Shown here: positions 32,032-49,969 of the stretch, piece after piece | Layout: each line of letters opens with the position of its first letter | Numbering within the stretch: the stretch's first letter is position 1 | Source: Candidatus Dormiibacterota bacterium | GTDB lineage: Bacteria > Chloroflexota > Dormibacteria > CF-121 | Direction: 5' to 3' | Assembly (NCBI GenBank): GCA_035716185.1 | Contig: DASTJZ010000075.1 | Span: forward strand, 1-57,466 | Length of the DNA: 57,466 bases | Translations under genes and position numbers: made by a program | Notes under the pieces: model-generated | What the model saw: the letters and a program-made list of their open reading frames with translations, nothing else | Databases searched by the model: none | What the model was told of the DNA's origin: nothing

Positions 32032-33540
32032 GTGCTGGCCCGAGCGCTGTCCGGGACGTTATTCGGACTCGAGGGCGTCAAGGTCGAAGTCGAGGCGGAC
32101 ATCGCCGATGGCTTGCCCGGCTTTCACATCGTTGGCCTGGGTGACCGCGCGCTCCAGGAGGCCAGGGAGCGGGTCAAGATCGCGATCAACAACAGCGGCT
32201 TCCAGTTTCCTGGCCGGCGCGTGACCGTCAACCTGGCGCCGGCGCAGCTACCCAAGGAGGGGAGTGGCTTCGACCTGGCGATCGCGGCGGCCATCGTCAA
32301 CGCGGCCGAGGAGCGCTCGCTCTCGGCCGAAGAGGCGTGGCTGGGCGAGCTGGCCCTCGACGGCAGCGTTCGGCCGATCCGCGGCACCCTGGCGATCACC
32401 GCGCACCTCGACCGGCTTGGGGTCCAGCGCTTCTATGTGCCGGCCGCCAATCTCGCCGAGGCCAGGATCGCGACCTCGGGGCTGGTCGTCGGCGTCAGCC
32501 ACTTCCGCGATCTCATTTCGCACTGGGAGGATGGCGCGCCGCTCCAGCCGCCGCCGGCAACTACGACCGGCGTGGCGCCATCCCCACCGCTTTCGCTGGA
32601 CCTGGCCGACATCCGGGGACAGGCACACGCTAAGCGGGCCCTGGAGATCGCCGCCGCCGGTGCGCATCATCTTTTATTGGTTGGTCCGCCGGGCGCGGGC
32701 AAGACCCTGCTGGCCCGCGCCCTGCCAGGCATCCTGCCGGCGCTGAGTCACGCCGAGGCCGTCGAGGTGACGTCGATCGCCTCATGTGTTGGCACCCTTC
32801 CGGCTGGCGCCGGACTGCTGGAGGTAGCTCCGTTTCGGGCGCCGCATCACACCATCTCGCCCGCAGCGCTGGTGGGAGGCGGCGGTGCCTCGCCACGACC
32901 GGGAGACGTGACCCGGGCTCACCGGGGGGTGCTGTTCATGGATGAAATCACGGAATTCCGACGCGACGCCCTCGAATCACTCCGGCAGCCGCTGGAAGAA
33001 GGACGGATCGCCGTGACGCGGACTCGAGGTCACGCCGTGCTTCCGAGCCGCTTTATCCTGGTCGCCGCCGCGAACCCCTGTCCATGCGGGTTCGCCGGCG
33101 ATCCGAAGCGGCTGTGTGAATGCACACCAATGGCGCGGCAACGCTATCGAGCGCGCCTGTCGGGTCCCATTCGCGATCGCATCGACTTGCAGGTCACCGT
33201 CCCGCGCCAGCCCGCGGCCGAGCTGATTCGCGGGGACCTGGTGATCGAGCCGAGTGGGGCGGTCCGCGACCGAGTGATCGAGGCGCGTGACCGGCAACGG
33301 ACGCGGCGGCCGCGCGGGCCGTTGAACGGCGCGCTCACCGGCCCACAGCTGCGCCAGGATGCGGCGCTCGACCGGGCCAGCCGAGGATTACTGGAGGCGG
33401 CAGCGGAGCGGCTGCATCTGAGCGGTCGCGCGGTGCATCGTGTGCTCCGGGTCGCGCGCACCATCGCCGACCTCGACCTGTGCGATGACGTGACCCAGGC
33501 GCACGTCGCCGAAGCGCTGCAGTATCGCGAAAGCGGATGA
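32032..33540 (+). CDS. YifB/ComM Mg-chelatase-like AAA+ ATPase
   Basis: GLPGFHIVGL, RVTVNLAPA..KEGSGFDL, GPPGAGKT, RAPHH, FMDE, NPCPCG, DRID. Confidence 0.93.
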   Translation: MLARALSGTLFGLEGVKVEVEADIADGLPGFHIVGLGDRALQEARERVKIAINNSGFQFPGRRVTVNLAPAQLPKEGSGFDLAIAAAIVNAAEERSLSAEEAWLGELALDGSVRPIRGTLAITAHLDRLGVQRFYVPAANLAEARIATSGLVVGVSHFRDLISHWEDGAPLQPPPATTTGVAPSPPLSLDLADIRGQAHAKRALEIAAAGAHHLLLVGPPGAGKTLLARALPGILPALSHAEAVEVTSIASCVGTLPAGAGLLEVAPFRAPHHTISPAALVGGGGASPRPGDVTRAHRGVLFMDEITEFRRDALESLRQPLEEGRIAVTRTRGHAVLPSRFILVAAANPCPCGFAGDPKRLCECTPMARQRYRARLSGPIRDRIDLQVTVPRQPAAELIRGDLVIEPSGAVRDRVIEARDRQRTRRPRGPLNGALTGPQLRQDAALDRASRGLLEAAAERLHLSGRAVHRVLRVARTIADLDLCDDVTQAHVAEALQYRESG

Positions 33541-34427
33541 GCATCGTCTGGCGCACCGATCCGGCCTATCCGGGGCTACTTCAGCAGATCCACGACCCGC
33601 CACGCCGCCTCTACCTGCGGGGCAAGATTCCCGACGGGCCTTCGATCGCAATCGTCGGCTCGCGACGGGCCACGCCCTACGGATGCCGCATTGCGCACCA
33701 GCTGGCGCACGAGCTGTCCGACGCCGGCATCGTGGTGGTCAGCGGGCTCGCTCGCGGCATCGACGCCGCGGCTCACCGCGGTGCGCTCGAGGGAGCGACC
33801 CCGACGGTGGCGGTGATGGCGACCGGCCTGGATCGGATCTATCCGCCCGAGCATGCCGAGCTGGCAGCGTCGATTGCGAAGACCGGAGCACTGGTCACGG
33901 AGGCGGCCGAAGGCACGTTGCCGCTCCCCGGTTACTTTCCGGTGCGCAACCGGATCATCAGCGGGCTCAGCCTGGGCGTGGTGGTCGTCGAGGCCGCTGA
34001 TCGAAGCGGGGCGCTGATCACGGCGCGCATGGCGCTGGAGCAGGGACGCGAGGTCTTCTGCGTTCCGGGCAGTATCGAAAACCCACTCGCCGTCGGCGTC
34101 CATCGCCTGATCAAAGATGGGGCTGTCCTGGTGCAGACCGTTGAGGATGTGCTGGATGAGTTTCCCGACCTCGCGCGCGCACGGGCGCGCGTACATGCGC
34201 GCGTACACGCGCGTGCGCGTGTGCGCACGCGCGCGCGTTCAGAACCGCAAGATCCCGAGCTATTTGCCGTTTGGGAATTGCTTGATTGGGTAGAACCGCG
34301 CCATCATGATGACCTGGCGATCATGATGAATCTGAACATCAAAGAAGTGAATCGGCGCTTGACGTTACTGGAGACGGGGGGCTATATAATCGGCGATCCC
34401 GGTGCGGTGACTCGCCGCGCCAGATAA
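33537..34427 (+). CDS. dprA: DNA-processing protein DprA
   Basis: IAIVGSR.AT.YG, VVSGLARGID..AH, FPVRNRIISG, VVEA..RSGALITA; low-complexity ARARARVH linker before a C-terminal winged helix. Confidence 0.95.
   Translation: MSIVWRTDPAYPGLLQQIHDPPRRLYLRGKIPDGPSIAIVGSRRATPYGCRIAHQLAHELSDAGIVVVSGLARGIDAAAHRGALEGATPTVAVMATGLDRIYPPEHAELAASIAKTGALVTEAAEGTLPLPGYFPVRNRIISGLSLGVVVVEAADRSGALITARMALEQGREVFCVPGSIENPLAVGVHRLIKDGAVLVQTVEDVLDEFPDLARARARVHARVHARARVRTRARSEPQDPELFAVWELLDWVEPRHHDDLAIMMNLNIKEVNRRLTLLETGGYIIGDPGAVTRRAR
34172..34238. repeat. Purine/pyrimidine-alternating tract (Z-DNA-prone) within dprA
   Basis: 34185-34238 is 54 nt of uninterrupted RY alternation, mostly CG, preceded by another 12 alternating nt; contains a tandem GCGCGCGTACA(T/C) repeat. 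Confidence 0.9.
34359..34390 (+). promoter_or_regulatory. Putative sigma70-type promoter for topA inside the dprA 3' end
   Basis: TTGACG 34359-34364, then TATATA 34383-34388 (18-bp spacer) or TATAAT 34385-34390 (20-bp spacer). Confidence 0.6.
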
Positions 34428-34437
34428 GAGAACCCTT

Positions 34438-36762
34438 ATGGCAAATCCCCTGATCATTGTTGAATCACCTGCGAAGGCGAAGACGCTTGGTCGCTTTCTT
34501 GGCGGCAAGTACGAGATTCGCGCGTCCATGGGTCACGTGCGCGACCTGCCCAAGAGCACCCTCGGCATCGATATCGAGCACGCGTTCAAGCCGGAGTACG
34601 TCACGATCCCGGGCAAGGAATCGACCATCAAGGAGCTGAAGGCCGCCGCCAAGGGAGCCTCGGACATCCTGCTCGCCTCCGATCCCGACCGCGAAGGCGA
34701 GGCCATTGCCTGGCATCTCGCGCACGTGCTCCACCTGAAAGATCCACGCCGGATCGAGTTGCACGAGATTACGCCCAGCGCCGTGCAGCGCGCGCTGGAG
34801 GCCCTGCGTCCCATGAACCAGGACCTTGTCGATGCGCAGCAGGCCCGCCGCGTCATCGACCGGCTGGTTGGTTACAAGCTGAGCCCGCTGCTCTGGAAAA
34901 AGATCCGCAAGGGCCTGAGCGCCGGACGCGTCCAGTCCGTCGCCGTTCGACTCGTCGTTGAGCGCGAAGAGGAGATCGAGAAATTCGTTCCGGTCGAGTC
35001 CTGGACGCTCGACGCCATGCTTTCCAAGGTGGATCTGCCGCAGCGCGTGTTCGCGGCCCGACTGGTGAGCAAGAAAGGCAGTGAGGAAAAACTCGAGCTG
35101 AAGAACGAGCCACAGATTCGGGAAATCATCGGCCAGCTCGACGGGGCGACCTACACCGTGCTCTCGATTGAAACCAAAGACAGCACGCGCAATGCACCGC
35201 CGCCCTACAAGACCAGCACCCTGCAGCAGGACGCCTCGTCCCGCCTGCGGCTCAAGCCCAATCGCACTATGAGCCTGGCGCAACAGCTCTATGAGGGCAT
35301 CGACCTCGGCACCGAGGGCCCGGTCGGTCTGATCACCTACATGCGCACCGACTCCTTCCGGATTTCCGACGAGGCCTCGATGGCGGCCCGGCGTTTCATC
35401 ACCGAGCAGTTCGGGCCGACCTACGCGCGGCGCGACAAAGTCGAGTTCAAGTCAAAGGGGCCGGTGCAGGATGCACACGAGGCGATCCGGCCCACCGATG
35501 TGACCCGGACGCCCGACTCGGTTCGTAACTTCCTGACCCCTGACCAGCTCAAGGTCTATCGCCTGATCTGGCAGCGGTTCACGGCGAGCCAGATGACCCC
35601 AGCGCGCTTCGCCCAGACCCGGGTCGATATCGGCGCGGGTGATTACCTGTTCCGCGCCAACGGCTCGGTGCTCGTCTTCGATGGCTTCTATCGTGTCTGG
35701 GAACGCGACACGGACGGCGACGAGGAGAAGGAGCTGCCGACGCTTTCCGTCAGCGAAGTTCTCAACCTCCAGGAGCTCAAGCCGGAGCAGCATTTCACCC
35801 AGCCGCCGCCACGCTACAGCGAGGCGACACTCATCAAGGCCCTCGAGGAGCTTGGGGTCGGGCGGCCCAGCACCTTTGCCCCGACGGTCGAGGTCATCCA
35901 GACCCGGCATTACGTGAAGCAGGAAGACCGGCGTCTGTATCCCACCGCGCTGGGCAAGACGGTCAATGGCTGGCTGATCGAGCAGTTCCCGGAGATCGTC
36001 GACGTGAAGTTCACCGCCGGCATGGAGGAGGAGCTCGACGACATCGAGGAGGGCCGGCGCAAGTGGGTGCCAATCGTCCGCGAGTTCTACAAGCCTTTTT
36101 CCCAGACCCTGCTCAAGGCTGAGAAAGGACCACGCGTCAAAGTCGAGATGCAGGAAACCGGTGAAGACTGCCCCAAGTGCAAGGAGGAAGGGCGCAACGG
36201 GCGACTCGTTTACCGGATGAGCAAGCTGGGCGAATTCATTGGCTGTTCGCTCTATCCCGAGTGTGACTACATCAAGGGACGCGAGGGGCAGGAAAAAGCG
36301 CCACCGCCCGAGCCAACCGGCGAGATGTGCCCGAAATGCGGCAAGCCGCTCGTCAAGCGGACGGGGAAACGCGGTCCCTTTGTCGCCTGCTCGGGCTATC
36401 CGAAGTGCCGCTATGTCAAGCGCGAGATCGACCCGGCCGACCTCATTGCGGACCGAGTCTGTCCAAAGTGTGGCAAGCAACTTCTCAACCGCAAGGGCCG
36501 CTTCGGCAGCTTTATCGGCTGCACCGGCTATCCGGACTGCCGCTACATCGAGGGTGGCCAGCGCACGGTGAAGCCGCCTGAACCGCACGAGCTGCTCATG
36601 GACGATCCCTGCCCCCGTTGCGGGAAACCGCAGGTGATGCGCCAGGGGCGCTATGGGGAGTTCAAGAGCTGTTCCGACTATCCGAACTGCAAACCGGAAC
36701 GGGCGGCGCGCCCCGCAGCGCGATCGCGCGGAGCCAAGAAGCCCACCGTCCCGGCTGCCTAG
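34438..36762 (+). CDS. topA: DNA topoisomerase I with four C4 zinc ribbons
   Basis: IIVESPAKAKT, DPDREGE, SAGRVQS, ITYMRTDS, AHEAIRPT; four CPxC...CxxYPxC repeats. Confidence 0.98.
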   Translation: MANPLIIVESPAKAKTLGRFLGGKYEIRASMGHVRDLPKSTLGIDIEHAFKPEYVTIPGKESTIKELKAAAKGASDILLASDPDREGEAIAWHLAHVLHLKDPRRIELHEITPSAVQRALEALRPMNQDLVDAQQARRVIDRLVGYKLSPLLWKKIRKGLSAGRVQSVAVRLVVEREEEIEKFVPVESWTLDAMLSKVDLPQRVFAARLVSKKGSEEKLELKNEPQIREIIGQLDGATYTVLSIETKDSTRNAPPPYKTSTLQQDASSRLRLKPNRTMSLAQQLYEGIDLGTEGPVGLITYMRTDSFRISDEASMAARRFITEQFGPTYARRDKVEFKSKGPVQDAHEAIRPTDVTRTPDSVRNFLTPDQLKVYRLIWQRFTASQMTPARFAQTRVDIGAGDYLFRANGSVLVFDGFYRVWERDTDGDEEKELPTLSVSEVLNLQELKPEQHFTQPPPRYSEATLIKALEELGVGRPSTFAPTVEVIQTRHYVKQEDRRLYPTALGKTVNGWLIEQFPEIVDVKFTAGMEEELDDIEEGRRKWVPIVREFYKPFSQTLLKAEKGPRVKVEMQETGEDCPKCKEEGRNGRLVYRMSKLGEFIGCSLYPECDYIKGREGQEKAPPPEPTGEMCPKCGKPLVKRTGKRGPFVACSGYPKCRYVKREIDPADLIADRVCPKCGKQLLNRKGRFGSFIGCTGYPDCRYIEGGQRTVKPPEPHELLMDDPCPRCGKPQVMRQGRYGEFKSCSDYPNCKPERAARPAARSRGAKKPTVPAA

Positions 36763-48999: not shown

Positions 49000-49090
49000 C
49001 GGAAATCGTTACAGGGTCGTCACCTCACCAGCCGGCGTGGGGATTGGGGAAAGGGTTGCCGTAACTTCGCATCCATAGCATCGGTGTGCG

Positions 49091-49969
49091 ATGGGTGCCC
49101 ATTCCGATGGTCGGCGCGCGCTTGCCGGCTTTTTCGCCCTGGCGTTCGGGGTCGCGCTGCTCTTCGGGCTCGTCGCCCTGGTAGCGCTACAGCCAAGCGA
49201 TGGCTATGCCTGGGTGCAGACTCCCGATCTCGCAGCGGACCTCCGCCTCGATGCCGCCCTGCACACCAAGCCACTGAAAAGCACGGTGATTTCGGAGGCG
49301 CTCAGCGACCAGCCGCTGGAGGGGAGCAGCCCGGCGTCCCTTGCGCTCACACCGGCTCTGGCGGTTCCTCCCGCGGCGACGACGGTGGCAGTCAGTCTGC
49401 CGCCCGCGACCCGACCGGTAACAACGCCGCAACCTGTCCTGGGCCCTACTGGGCCGCAACCCAGCCCAGCGCCATCTCCAATGTCAACGCCCTCACCAAC
49501 CCCGACTCCAACCGCACAGCCGACGGCACCGCCGAGTCCGACAGCGACACCCACGCCGGCCCCGACGCCAACGCCCACGCCGGGCCCGACTCCAACCCCC
49601 ACGCCGCGGCCCACTCCGACGCCGACGCCCGCTGCGCGATTCGCGATCACTTCCGCCTTCGAAAGCGTGAGCAAGTCGGTCAAAAACGGAAACGGCAGCC
49701 GTTGCTCACAGGACACGGTGACGGCGACGGGGAGCTTTACGACCAACGGCGTCGGTGGCACCGTGTACTACGGATGGGCCCACTACGACACCAGCGGCCA
49801 GCTCACGGGCTGGACGTCCGAAGCGCCAATCCAGATCGCACCAGGCGATACGCGCTCGCATAGCGTGGTCGCAGACCTCTTCACGCCGCAACATAGCGGT
49901 TCGGACCGGCTCGTCTTCCTGAGCCCGGCGTACTCCGCAGCGGCACAAAGCTGGAGTTGCGTTGGCTAG
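49091..49969 (+). CDS. Membrane-anchored surface protein: N-terminal TM, Pro/Thr stalk, C-terminal beta-rich domain with two Cys
   Basis: [20 protein letters not shown]; TPTP repeats; [16 protein letters not shown]; TAGCAT 9 nt upstream. Confidence 0.7.
49460..49630 (+). repeat. Pro/Thr (TP)n low-complexity coding repeat
   Basis: [57 protein letters not shown]; codons vary between units. Confidence 0.8.

Follow-up and report, generated by a model that had tools for sequence, protein, structure and literature searches.

Introduction

Whether Z-DNA serves a selected function in bacteria is a long-standing open question. Engineered (CG)n and (CA)n inserts that form Z-DNA have reportedly been used as in vivo probes of supercoiling, both on plasmids and on the chromosome of E. 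coli, in work attributed to Rahmouni and Wells in 1989 and to Lukomski and Wells in 1994. Upstream elements of bacterial promoters which compete for superhelical stress are also known, such as the stress-induced duplex destabilization (SIDD) site of the ilvPG/IHF system. Here we describe a natural alternating purine/pyrimidine (R/Y) tract in a 57,466-nucleotide stretch of DNA from a Candidatus Dormiibacterota bacterium (contig DASTJZ010000075.1, positions 1 to 57,466; hereafter the window). The tract is located at 34172-34238, inside the coding sequence of dprA and just upstream of topA, the gene for DNA topoisomerase I, and an earlier note made from the letters of this DNA had pointed to it as a possible supercoiling switch. 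Comparison of orthologous loci strongly supports a constraint on the alternation that acts at the DNA level, and we consider the tract an unusual case, a natural sequence that may work as a left-handed (Z-DNA) element in a bacterium.

The tract resembles the engineered inserts in being an alternating purine-pyrimidine segment of tens of base pairs upstream of a (here putative) promoter. Those inserts flip at physiological or transcription-generated negative supercoiling, and the onset predicted for the tract, at a superhelical density (sigma) of about -0.03, falls within the range explored with them. Unlike the inserts, the tract is natural, lies within a coding sequence (CDS), is interrupted by transitions and appears to be conserved by selection across a clade, and it is known here from sequence alone. 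In eukaryotes, promoter-proximal Z-DNA flipons (Herbert) have been proposed to capture transcription-generated torsion and thereby to reset or modulate initiation (PMC10474125, PMC11293857). The tract would likewise be a sequence-encoded conformational switch near a promoter; unlike the eukaryotic flipons it occurs in a bacterium, which has neither nucleosomes nor a validated Z-alpha reader, and it is embedded in codons, where it dictates an (A/T/V)(R/H) peptide. With SIDD sites it shares the position of an upstream segment whose stress-induced transition would vie with the opening of the -10 region for superhelical energy and in this way adjust how the promoter responds to supercoiling; SIDD cases are, however, A/T-rich intergenic melting sites, whereas the tract is a G/C-rich B-Z candidate within a gene. 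Such competing transitions at bacterial promoters have been noted (PMC8422995, PMC2211533), and in the discriminator model a promoter class which is G/C-rich after the -10 region is reported as favoured by negative supercoiling (PMC8422995). The locus is comparable to the E. coli topA, gyrA and gyrB promoters in that the downstream gene is topA and its putative promoter has a G/C-rich region after the -10 box. We know of no Z-prone tract in the described control regions of E. coli topA or of the gyr genes. The tract also recalls contingency loci, being a short-unit coding repeat whose length differs between strains; unlike these, it is an imperfect repeat with in-frame length changes, and the only frameshift seen next to it, in locus L110, came from an adjacent 19-nt deletion and not from slippage. 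A phase-variable contingency locus was rejected on these grounds, the repeat being interrupted and all 79 unique linkers being in frame with length steps of 6 bp. To our knowledge, no bacterial coding-embedded Z-prone tract conserved by selection on its alternation has been described, and a literature search found no bacterial precedent for a coding Z-prone tract under such selection.

An alternating tract in the linker of DprA

The whole tract (34172-34238) comprises 67 bp with one out-of-register base, G34184, and codes for the DprA linker ARARARVHARVHARARVRTRAR. Its major part is a perfect R/Y run of 54 bp (34185-34238), which corresponds exactly to dprA codons 217-234 (GCG CGC GTA CAT GCG CGC GTA CAC GCG CGT GCG CGT GTG CGC ACG CGC GCG CGT). 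A 12-bp run at 34172-34183 shares the register of the 54-bp run, and the sole break between the two, G34184, is the third base of the CGG codon of R216. The unbroken alternation over 18 codons claimed in the earlier note is thus correct for the 54 bp, while the span given there is that of the 67-bp tract with its one break. The next longest R/Y runs in the window were of 14, 13 and 12 bp only, which agrees with the remark that nothing comparable exists elsewhere in it, and since the number of runs drops nearly two-fold for each extra base, a run of 54 bp is far beyond chance. Given the peptide, the probability that all 16 free third positions hold the alternation is ~6e-6, calculated by multiplying the frequencies with which the codons are used in 12 further window genes. 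In those 12 genes GTA makes up 3% of Val, CGT 9% of Arg and CAT 37% of His codons, so that the description of these codons as uncommon holds for GTA and CGT and is weaker for CAT. Tandem Repeats Finder and a repeat search read the segment as a degenerate (CG)n array, in which a sub-period of 12 bp and numerous quasi-palindromes were seen.

Selection acts on the purine/pyrimidine class

We analyzed 116 orthologous loci (~6.9 kb each), 80 of them taken from soil metagenomes (JGI/ENA) and the other 36 from species genomes in GTDB, and prepared a codon alignment of 93 unique CDS, the 89 tract-bearing ones being used for divergence. At four-fold degenerate sites the pairwise transversion difference was 0.356 in the part coding for the Rossmann-type domain (114 columns), against 0.049 when the tract was taken as a whole and 0.003 when only its core was considered (Mann-Whitney p = 2e-9 for Rossmann versus tract). 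The transition difference at four-fold sites was, on the other hand, equal in the two regions (0.132 in the Rossmann part versus 0.117-0.139 in the tract). When all codon positions were considered, the ratio of transitions to transversions was 10.5 in the tract core versus 0.73 in the Rossmann part, and the amino-acid divergence was 0.233 versus 0.127, which means that the tract peptide evolves nearly two times faster than the enzyme core. Codon usage showed the same bias, as 98% of the Ala, Thr and Val codons (GCN/ACN/GTN) in the tract end with a purine versus 51% outside, and 95% of the Arg codons (CGN) end with a pyrimidine versus 62% outside. Codon-pair or context bias was considered as a source of this third-position alternation and was ruled out, because the identical dipeptide contexts elsewhere in comM, dprA and topA gave values of 54% and 51% only. 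The synonymous choice of GCA versus GCG was 12% inside and 11% outside the tract, and this equal use fits a near-symmetric cost of transitions, as in the Z-DNA energy table (PMC3024258).

An RYR codon followed by a YRY codon can code only for A/T/V/I/M and then R/H/C/Y, and these are the residues seen in the linker; the peptide therefore looks like a passenger of a constraint on the DNA. Furthermore, the A/T interruption pattern in the 3′ half of the tract is common to most orthologs and the transitions are not accelerated, because of which neither slippage homogenisation nor a transition bias explains the lost transversions. Combined together, the ~100-fold reduction of third-position transversions, the neutral transitions and a peptide that changes faster than the enzyme core strongly support a constraint at the DNA level and not at the protein level, as the earlier note had supposed. 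Purifying selection appears to keep the structure-forming potential, that is the R/Y class, and not the base sequence. This is what is expected when the potential of a Z-DNA-forming sequence is conserved: transversions are nearly absent, transitions are free, and the register is kept through indels.

Occurrence of the tract among relatives

The nearest relatives of the window are metagenome-assembled genomes (MAGs) from soil labelled Candidatus Dormiibacterota or 'Chloroflexi bacterium CF_'. In ~105 of the 116 loci the longest R/Y run was found in the dprA linker, with a length of 19-82 bp (typically 39, 58 or 64 bp), and all other R/Y runs in those loci were of 17 bp or less. A protein search gave 120 DprA clusters of 71-100% identity, and every one of them had an alternating [A/T/V/I]-[R/H/Q/Y] linker. 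The tract was missing from the most distant relatives only (L071, L072, L077 and L105; 68-71% identity), in which the longest linker run was 5-6 bp, and seven loci were intermediate with runs of 15-34 bp (L073, L102-L104, L107, L108 and L115). When DprA was scored against 1.84 billion representatives, none of the 148 best representatives from other DprA clades (~45-60% identity) had four or more alternating [ATVIM][RHCY] pairs. Because ~105 orthologous loci carry the tract and none of the 148 DprA proteins of other clades shows the linker, the tract is, on these comparisons, a clade-specific yet conserved feature. A private slippage expansion, absent from close relatives, had been named in the earlier note as an outcome that would speak against a function, and this is not what we found. 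Linkers of 13, 17, 19, 21, 23, 25 and 27 aa were observed, all indels being multiples of 6 bp, so that neither the frame of translation nor the R/Y register is disturbed, 6 bp being the only step size with this property.

Some variants of the tract deserve mention. In a large subclade (for example L024, L026, L032 and L045) two interruptions, Arg CGA and Gln CAG, occur 6 bp apart ('CGA GCG CAG GCG'); both are single-base transversions which leave the register intact, and they split the tract into runs of 18 bp and 39 bp. In P0014, P0020, P0057 and P0065 a 14-residue insertion (for example HTRLVGDQPGLMKRA) is present right before the alternating linker, corresponding to aa ~210 in the window, and the upstream DNA edge of the tract is therefore indel-prone. 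In L110 (VBHO01000024, Chloroflexi bacterium CF_106; L110:2505-2530) the 19-nt deletion mentioned above lies directly 3′ of the tract and frameshifts dprA, putting the winged helix out of frame. It is the sole such case in the 116 loci and could be an artefact of assembly or else a deletion that took place where the DNA is Z-prone.

Predicted B-Z transition

Published Z-DNA energies are 0.7 kcal per dinucleotide for CG and 1.3 kcal for CA/TG, with several kcal for steps out of alternation (PMC3024258, Table 1); a change from CG to CA/TG thus costs 0.6 kcal per dinucleotide (PMC3024258). This asymmetry matches our data, since near-neutral transitions and purged transversions are what the table would predict. 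With these parameters we applied a single-run model of the stress-induced B-Z (SIBZ) type, assuming a 10-kb domain. The B-Z energy of the 54-bp run was 26.7 kcal/mol in the model, equal to 0.49 kcal/mol per bp, and the modelled probability of the Z form rose from 0.004 at sigma -0.025 to 0.65 at -0.03 and 0.999 at -0.035. In a scan of the 57 kb of the window the tract was the sole segment with dG < 0 at sigma -0.04 (-11.6 versus +0.7 kcal/mol for the next segment), and thus the only one predicted to flip at moderate superhelical density. The predicted onset was -0.031 to -0.035 in all tract-bearing orthologs versus -0.051 to -0.055 in the tract-less ones. The tract therefore has the properties of a Z-DNA-forming sequence, with an alternating run long enough to nucleate (at least ~12-20 bp) and a flip predicted at physiological sigma. 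We infer from the model that it would adopt Z-DNA in vivo, and a Z-DNA transition is the best-fitting physical explanation of the constraint on alternation.

Conserved 3′ end of dprA and a possible link to topA

The earlier note had assumed a topA promoter whose position falls within the last part of dprA. A -35-like hexamer TTGACG is located at 34359-34364 (+ strand), 120 bp beyond the end of the tract, and the topA ATG (34438) is 200 bp from the tract end, which are the distances that had been given. The TTG codon of the hexamer (L275) is invariant, while position 6 of the box varies among G, A and T, many orthologs having TTGACA or TTGACT. It is followed by a -10-like TATATAAT (34383-34390, + strand), in which TATATA would give a spacer of 18 nt and TATAAT one of 20 nt, and then by G/C-rich CGGCGA; the codons TAT ATA ATC GGC (34383-34394, Y283-G286) are invariant in all the 93 unique CDS. 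ATA is found in none of the 266 Ile codons of the 12 other window genes and yet is invariant here, an indication that the choice of this codon follows from the -10-like box. A consensus promoter and terminator scan of 33400-34700 called neither a sigma-70 site nor a terminator; its rules on spacing (18 or 20 nt here) and on the -10 box (imperfect here) led it to miss the pair, and the promoter rules of this phylum are not established. Promoter function is, as a consequence, argued from conservation only. Of the promoter claim, the invariant synonymous sites at TTGAC and TATATAATCGGC are thus in favour and the empty consensus scan is against. Both TTGAC and TATATAATCGGC are codon-invariant, and not a single indel was found between the tract and the boxes in the 89 sequences, which shows that the 120-bp spacing is fixed.

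The constraint extends beyond the two boxes. A nucleotide-invariant, A/T-rich block of 46 bp (34266-34311, + strand; GCC GTT TGG GAA TTG CTT GAT TGG GTA GAA CCG CGC CAT CAT GAT GA) begins 27 bp past the tract inside the coding region of the winged helix, and its codons GTT, TTG, GTA, CAT and CAT are invariant in 93/93 unique CDS, tract-less relatives included. Candidate roles for it are those of a further promoter, an UP-like element or a site for a regulator. Among the invariant amino-acid columns with degenerate codons, 11/27 were also codon-invariant in the winged-helix part versus 0/84 in the Rossmann part, and the 11 invariant codons (GTT, TTG, GTA, CAT, CAT, GAA, TTG, TAT, ATA, ATC and GGC) are A/T-rich and rare in the genome. 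A strong constraint at the nucleotide level is thus seen over the last ~170 bp of dprA. All three conserved patches and the adjacency of dprA and topA are present in the tract-less relatives too, which implies that the tract was added to a pre-existing arrangement and is not obligatory for the control of topA. Since the boxes pre-date the tract, any role in topA control would be modulatory and lineage-specific. A link of Z-DNA to topA, and with it the function of a supercoiling switch, would be plausible; in which direction topA would be affected cannot be predicted from the sequence.

The winged helix of DprA

DprA consists of a Rossmann-type domain (aa 2-200), the linker (aa ~211-234) and a winged helix (aa 233-289). 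In the AlphaFold2 (AF2) model, confidence was low in the linker and the C-terminus, the predicted local distance difference test (pLDDT) score being below 50 for residues 222-255, and residues 210-222 were weakly predicted as helix. The likeness of this winged helix to Z-alpha domains, which the earlier note had mentioned, exists in the literature, where the C-terminal DML1-like domain of DprA was proposed to bind Z-DNA (PMC3950713) and the C-terminal domain was described as a Z-alpha domain (PMC6533540); these claims have also been criticised, as the required residues are missing and experimental validation is lacking (PMC11298590). The likeness is thus a published proposal, and no Z-alpha was found in a PDB sequence search with this winged helix. 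The hallmarks of Z-alpha are the Asn and Tyr of the recognition helix and the Pro-Pro-x-Trp of the wing; in an alignment by eye the putative Asn-equivalent position varies between Ser and Asn, and the Tyr-equivalent position was read as Thr. We treat a Z-alpha-like winged helix in DprA as a lead only.

Discussion

We argue, tentatively, that the dprA linker harbours a DNA-level, Z-prone 'flipon' whose R/Y alternation is held by purifying selection and which modulates the supercoiling response of topA. More doubtful is the specific form of this explanation, in which the coding-embedded flipon flips at about sigma -0.03 and sets the supercoiling threshold of topA expression, the linker peptide being a passenger. 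The tract most likely originated when slippage multiplied GCG-CGC (Ala-Arg) codons within a linker that was already Ala/Arg-rich; strict alternation would since have been held by purifying selection, while the bases, and hence the amino acids, drifted by transitions. Once local negative superhelicity, either global or arising behind RNA polymerases on topA and the rpsB-tsf cluster, goes past about sigma -0.03, the tract of 57-82 bp would change from B to Z and absorb roughly 10-15 negative turns. This flip might then compete with the opening of the topA promoter and/or with read-through from comM-dprA, and the outcome could, speculatively, be a torsional buffer or a threshold which reshapes the response of topA to supercoiling. 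Competing structural transitions, Z-DNA included, are regarded in the literature as altering the supercoiling response of promoters (PMC8422995), and a torsional-buffer role has been proposed for bacterial Z-DNA, for which in vivo evidence was noted as lacking (PMC13463272).

Several points weigh against this explanation. Within the R/Y classes, CGT accounts for 41% of CGY in the tract versus 15% outside and GTA for 94% of GTR versus 12.5% outside, an enrichment not predicted by Z-propensity alone; it may reflect selection against pure (CG)n, which is prone to slippage and deletion. If negative supercoils were taken up by a flip upstream of a promoter which supercoiling activates, the induction of topA would be dampened and not boosted, because of which the homeostatic logic is not self-evident. 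Relatives manage without the tract, which arose later than the boxes and the adjacency of dprA and topA. The consensus scan called no promoter, the energy model is a single-run approximation, and the rarity of the tract was assessed within 57 kb and the orthologous flanks. Finally, the host organisms are uncultured and known from MAGs and metagenomes only, and the Z form is predicted by a model.

If DprA simply needed an alternating linker of small and basic residues (A/T/V-R/H), with the DNA alternation as a by-product, one could point to the basic, Ala/Arg-rich linker of even the tract-less relatives and to the weakly predicted helix at residues 210-222. But such a need would not constrain the third positions, which are R/Y-biased in the tract (98% and 95% versus 51-62%) and unbiased in the same dipeptides elsewhere, and it agrees poorly with a linker that evolves faster than the enzyme core, is of low confidence or disordered in the AF2 model at residues 222-255 and has no counterpart in the 148 DprA representatives of other clades. 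This protein-only reading is largely refuted by the third-position data and we regard it as very improbable. A neutral microsatellite, in which a degenerate (CG)n repeat without function is kept alternating by slippage purification or by a local excess of transitions, such as deamination of methylated CpG, would account for repeat periods of 2, 6 and 12 bp, for ortholog lengths that vary in 6-bp steps and for the fact that every difference from (GC)n is a GC-to-AT transition. It is nonetheless improbable, as transitions in the tract equal the flank value with transversions ~100-fold missing, the T/A interruptions shared by most orthologs in the 3′ half speak against a slippage turnover rapid enough to purge transversions, the short pure CG runs make slippage rare, and the tract has lasted in lineages so diverged that their flanking four-fold sites approach saturation (transversion difference 0.36).

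Structure in the RNA requires more attention. The tract could act as a very stable mRNA hairpin or long double-stranded RNA, tolerant of G-U pairs, which pauses RNA polymerase or ribosomes, or as an RNase III-type site for processing or stability that uncouples comM-dprA from topA. Tract RNAs fold to -43 to -58 kcal/mol, a transversion in a self-complementary alternating tract would break a pair while pairing with G survives a C-to-U change, CGT is enriched, and the consensus fold consists of small local hairpins with 98% canonical pairs. That fold, however, calculated from 55 equal-length tracts, has only three local hairpins of 5-6 bp, and the covariation in it (alifold) did not exceed that of a control made by sliding the 3′ partners by 2. 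Stability was not exceptional either, with a mean z of -0.2 against shuffles that keep alternation and composition (n=76 unique tracts) and of -1.2, no real excess, against dinucleotide shuffles. The alternation continues through the predicted RNA loops, the sense strand has 543 A versus 309 U so that many A residues are unpairable, A stands for G at synonymous sites as often as under neutrality, contrary to RNA pairing, and no hairpin of note was seen at the corresponding place in the tract-less relatives. There was no U-tract, no terminator and no Rfam family at the gathering threshold, and we rejected an intrinsic terminator or regulatory RNA hairpin; matches to mir-297 and mir-466 at permissive E-values were sub-threshold hits to repeat-derived microRNA families, and were rejected as composition artefacts. 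An RNA-level cause is thus unlikely, though of the alternatives it deserves the most weight. A Z-DNA or alternating-duplex element with a target other than topA shares all the evidence on R/Y selection with the flipon that we favour, and it might be a torsional sink for the cluster, a block to dprA read-through, a site for recombination or a nucleoid protein, or a site for a Z-alpha-like winged helix. The long, co-directional and highly expressed housekeeping cluster would suit a general sink, and the proposal of a Z-DNA-binding-like C-terminal domain in DprA (PMC3950713, PMC6533540) would suit the last of these; that proposal is unvalidated with key residues missing (PMC11298590), the PDB search had no Z-alpha match, and the Ser/Asn and Thr residues at the by-eye Asn and Tyr positions do not help it. 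The fixed 120-bp spacing to the promoter-like boxes (0 indels in 89 sequences) points instead to the adjacent promoter, and a target other than topA appears to us rather unlikely, a shade more so than an RNA-level cause.

Across ~100 diverged genomes the alternation has been kept at synonymous sites and through indels while bases and peptide drift, and this pattern is the signature expected if the conformational change of the duplex is what selection sees. The tract stands beside the gene whose product relaxes negative supercoils, and its distance to the conserved promoter-like boxes is fixed, which offers a concrete circuit, open to tests, that could be transferred to model organisms. If the proposed flipon is real, supercoiling homeostasis would have a component based on DNA structure; a protein segment dictated by a constraint on DNA structure would also bear on low-complexity linkers and on codon models.

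Gene neighbourhood and other features

The dprA gene (33537-34427, + strand) encodes a protein of 296 aa that belongs to the DprA family, with PF02481 (2.5e-73) and a C-terminal PF17782 which is marginal (23.0 bits versus a cutoff of 22.9), and with PDB matches 3MAJ (4e-47) and 3UQZ. Upstream of it lies a comM/yifB-like gene for an ATPase of the Mg-chelatase family (32032-33540, + strand; PF01078, PF13541 and PF13335), the stop codon of which overlaps the dprA start (ATGA, 33537-33540). Downstream, topA (34438-36762, + strand; 774 aa with Toprim, Topoisom_bac and four Zn ribbons in Pfam) starts 10 nt after the dprA stop codon. The ATGA overlap and the 10-nt gap suggest that comM-dprA-topA can also be expressed as a single translationally coupled unit. 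Directly 3′ of dprA, topA was found in every locus reaching that far, tract-less ones included. Nearly all confident genes at 18162-48996 are on the + strand, forming a co-directional housekeeping block in the order smc, ffh, rnhB, comM, dprA, topA, rpsB, tsf, pyrH, uppS, dxr, proS and relA/spoT, and transcription-generated supercoiling in this block would be substantial. Two antisense open reading frames (ORFs) over dprA (33576-34208 and 33932-34228, - strand) were rejected as GC-rich artefacts; an overlapping gene would not yield a constraint on transversions only. Further downstream, a tandem repeat with a 24-bp period (49530-49630, ~3.4 copies, consensus CGCCGGGCCCGACACCAACACCCA) was observed inside a + strand ORF (49084-49969), where it probably encodes a Pro/Thr/Asp-rich repeat.

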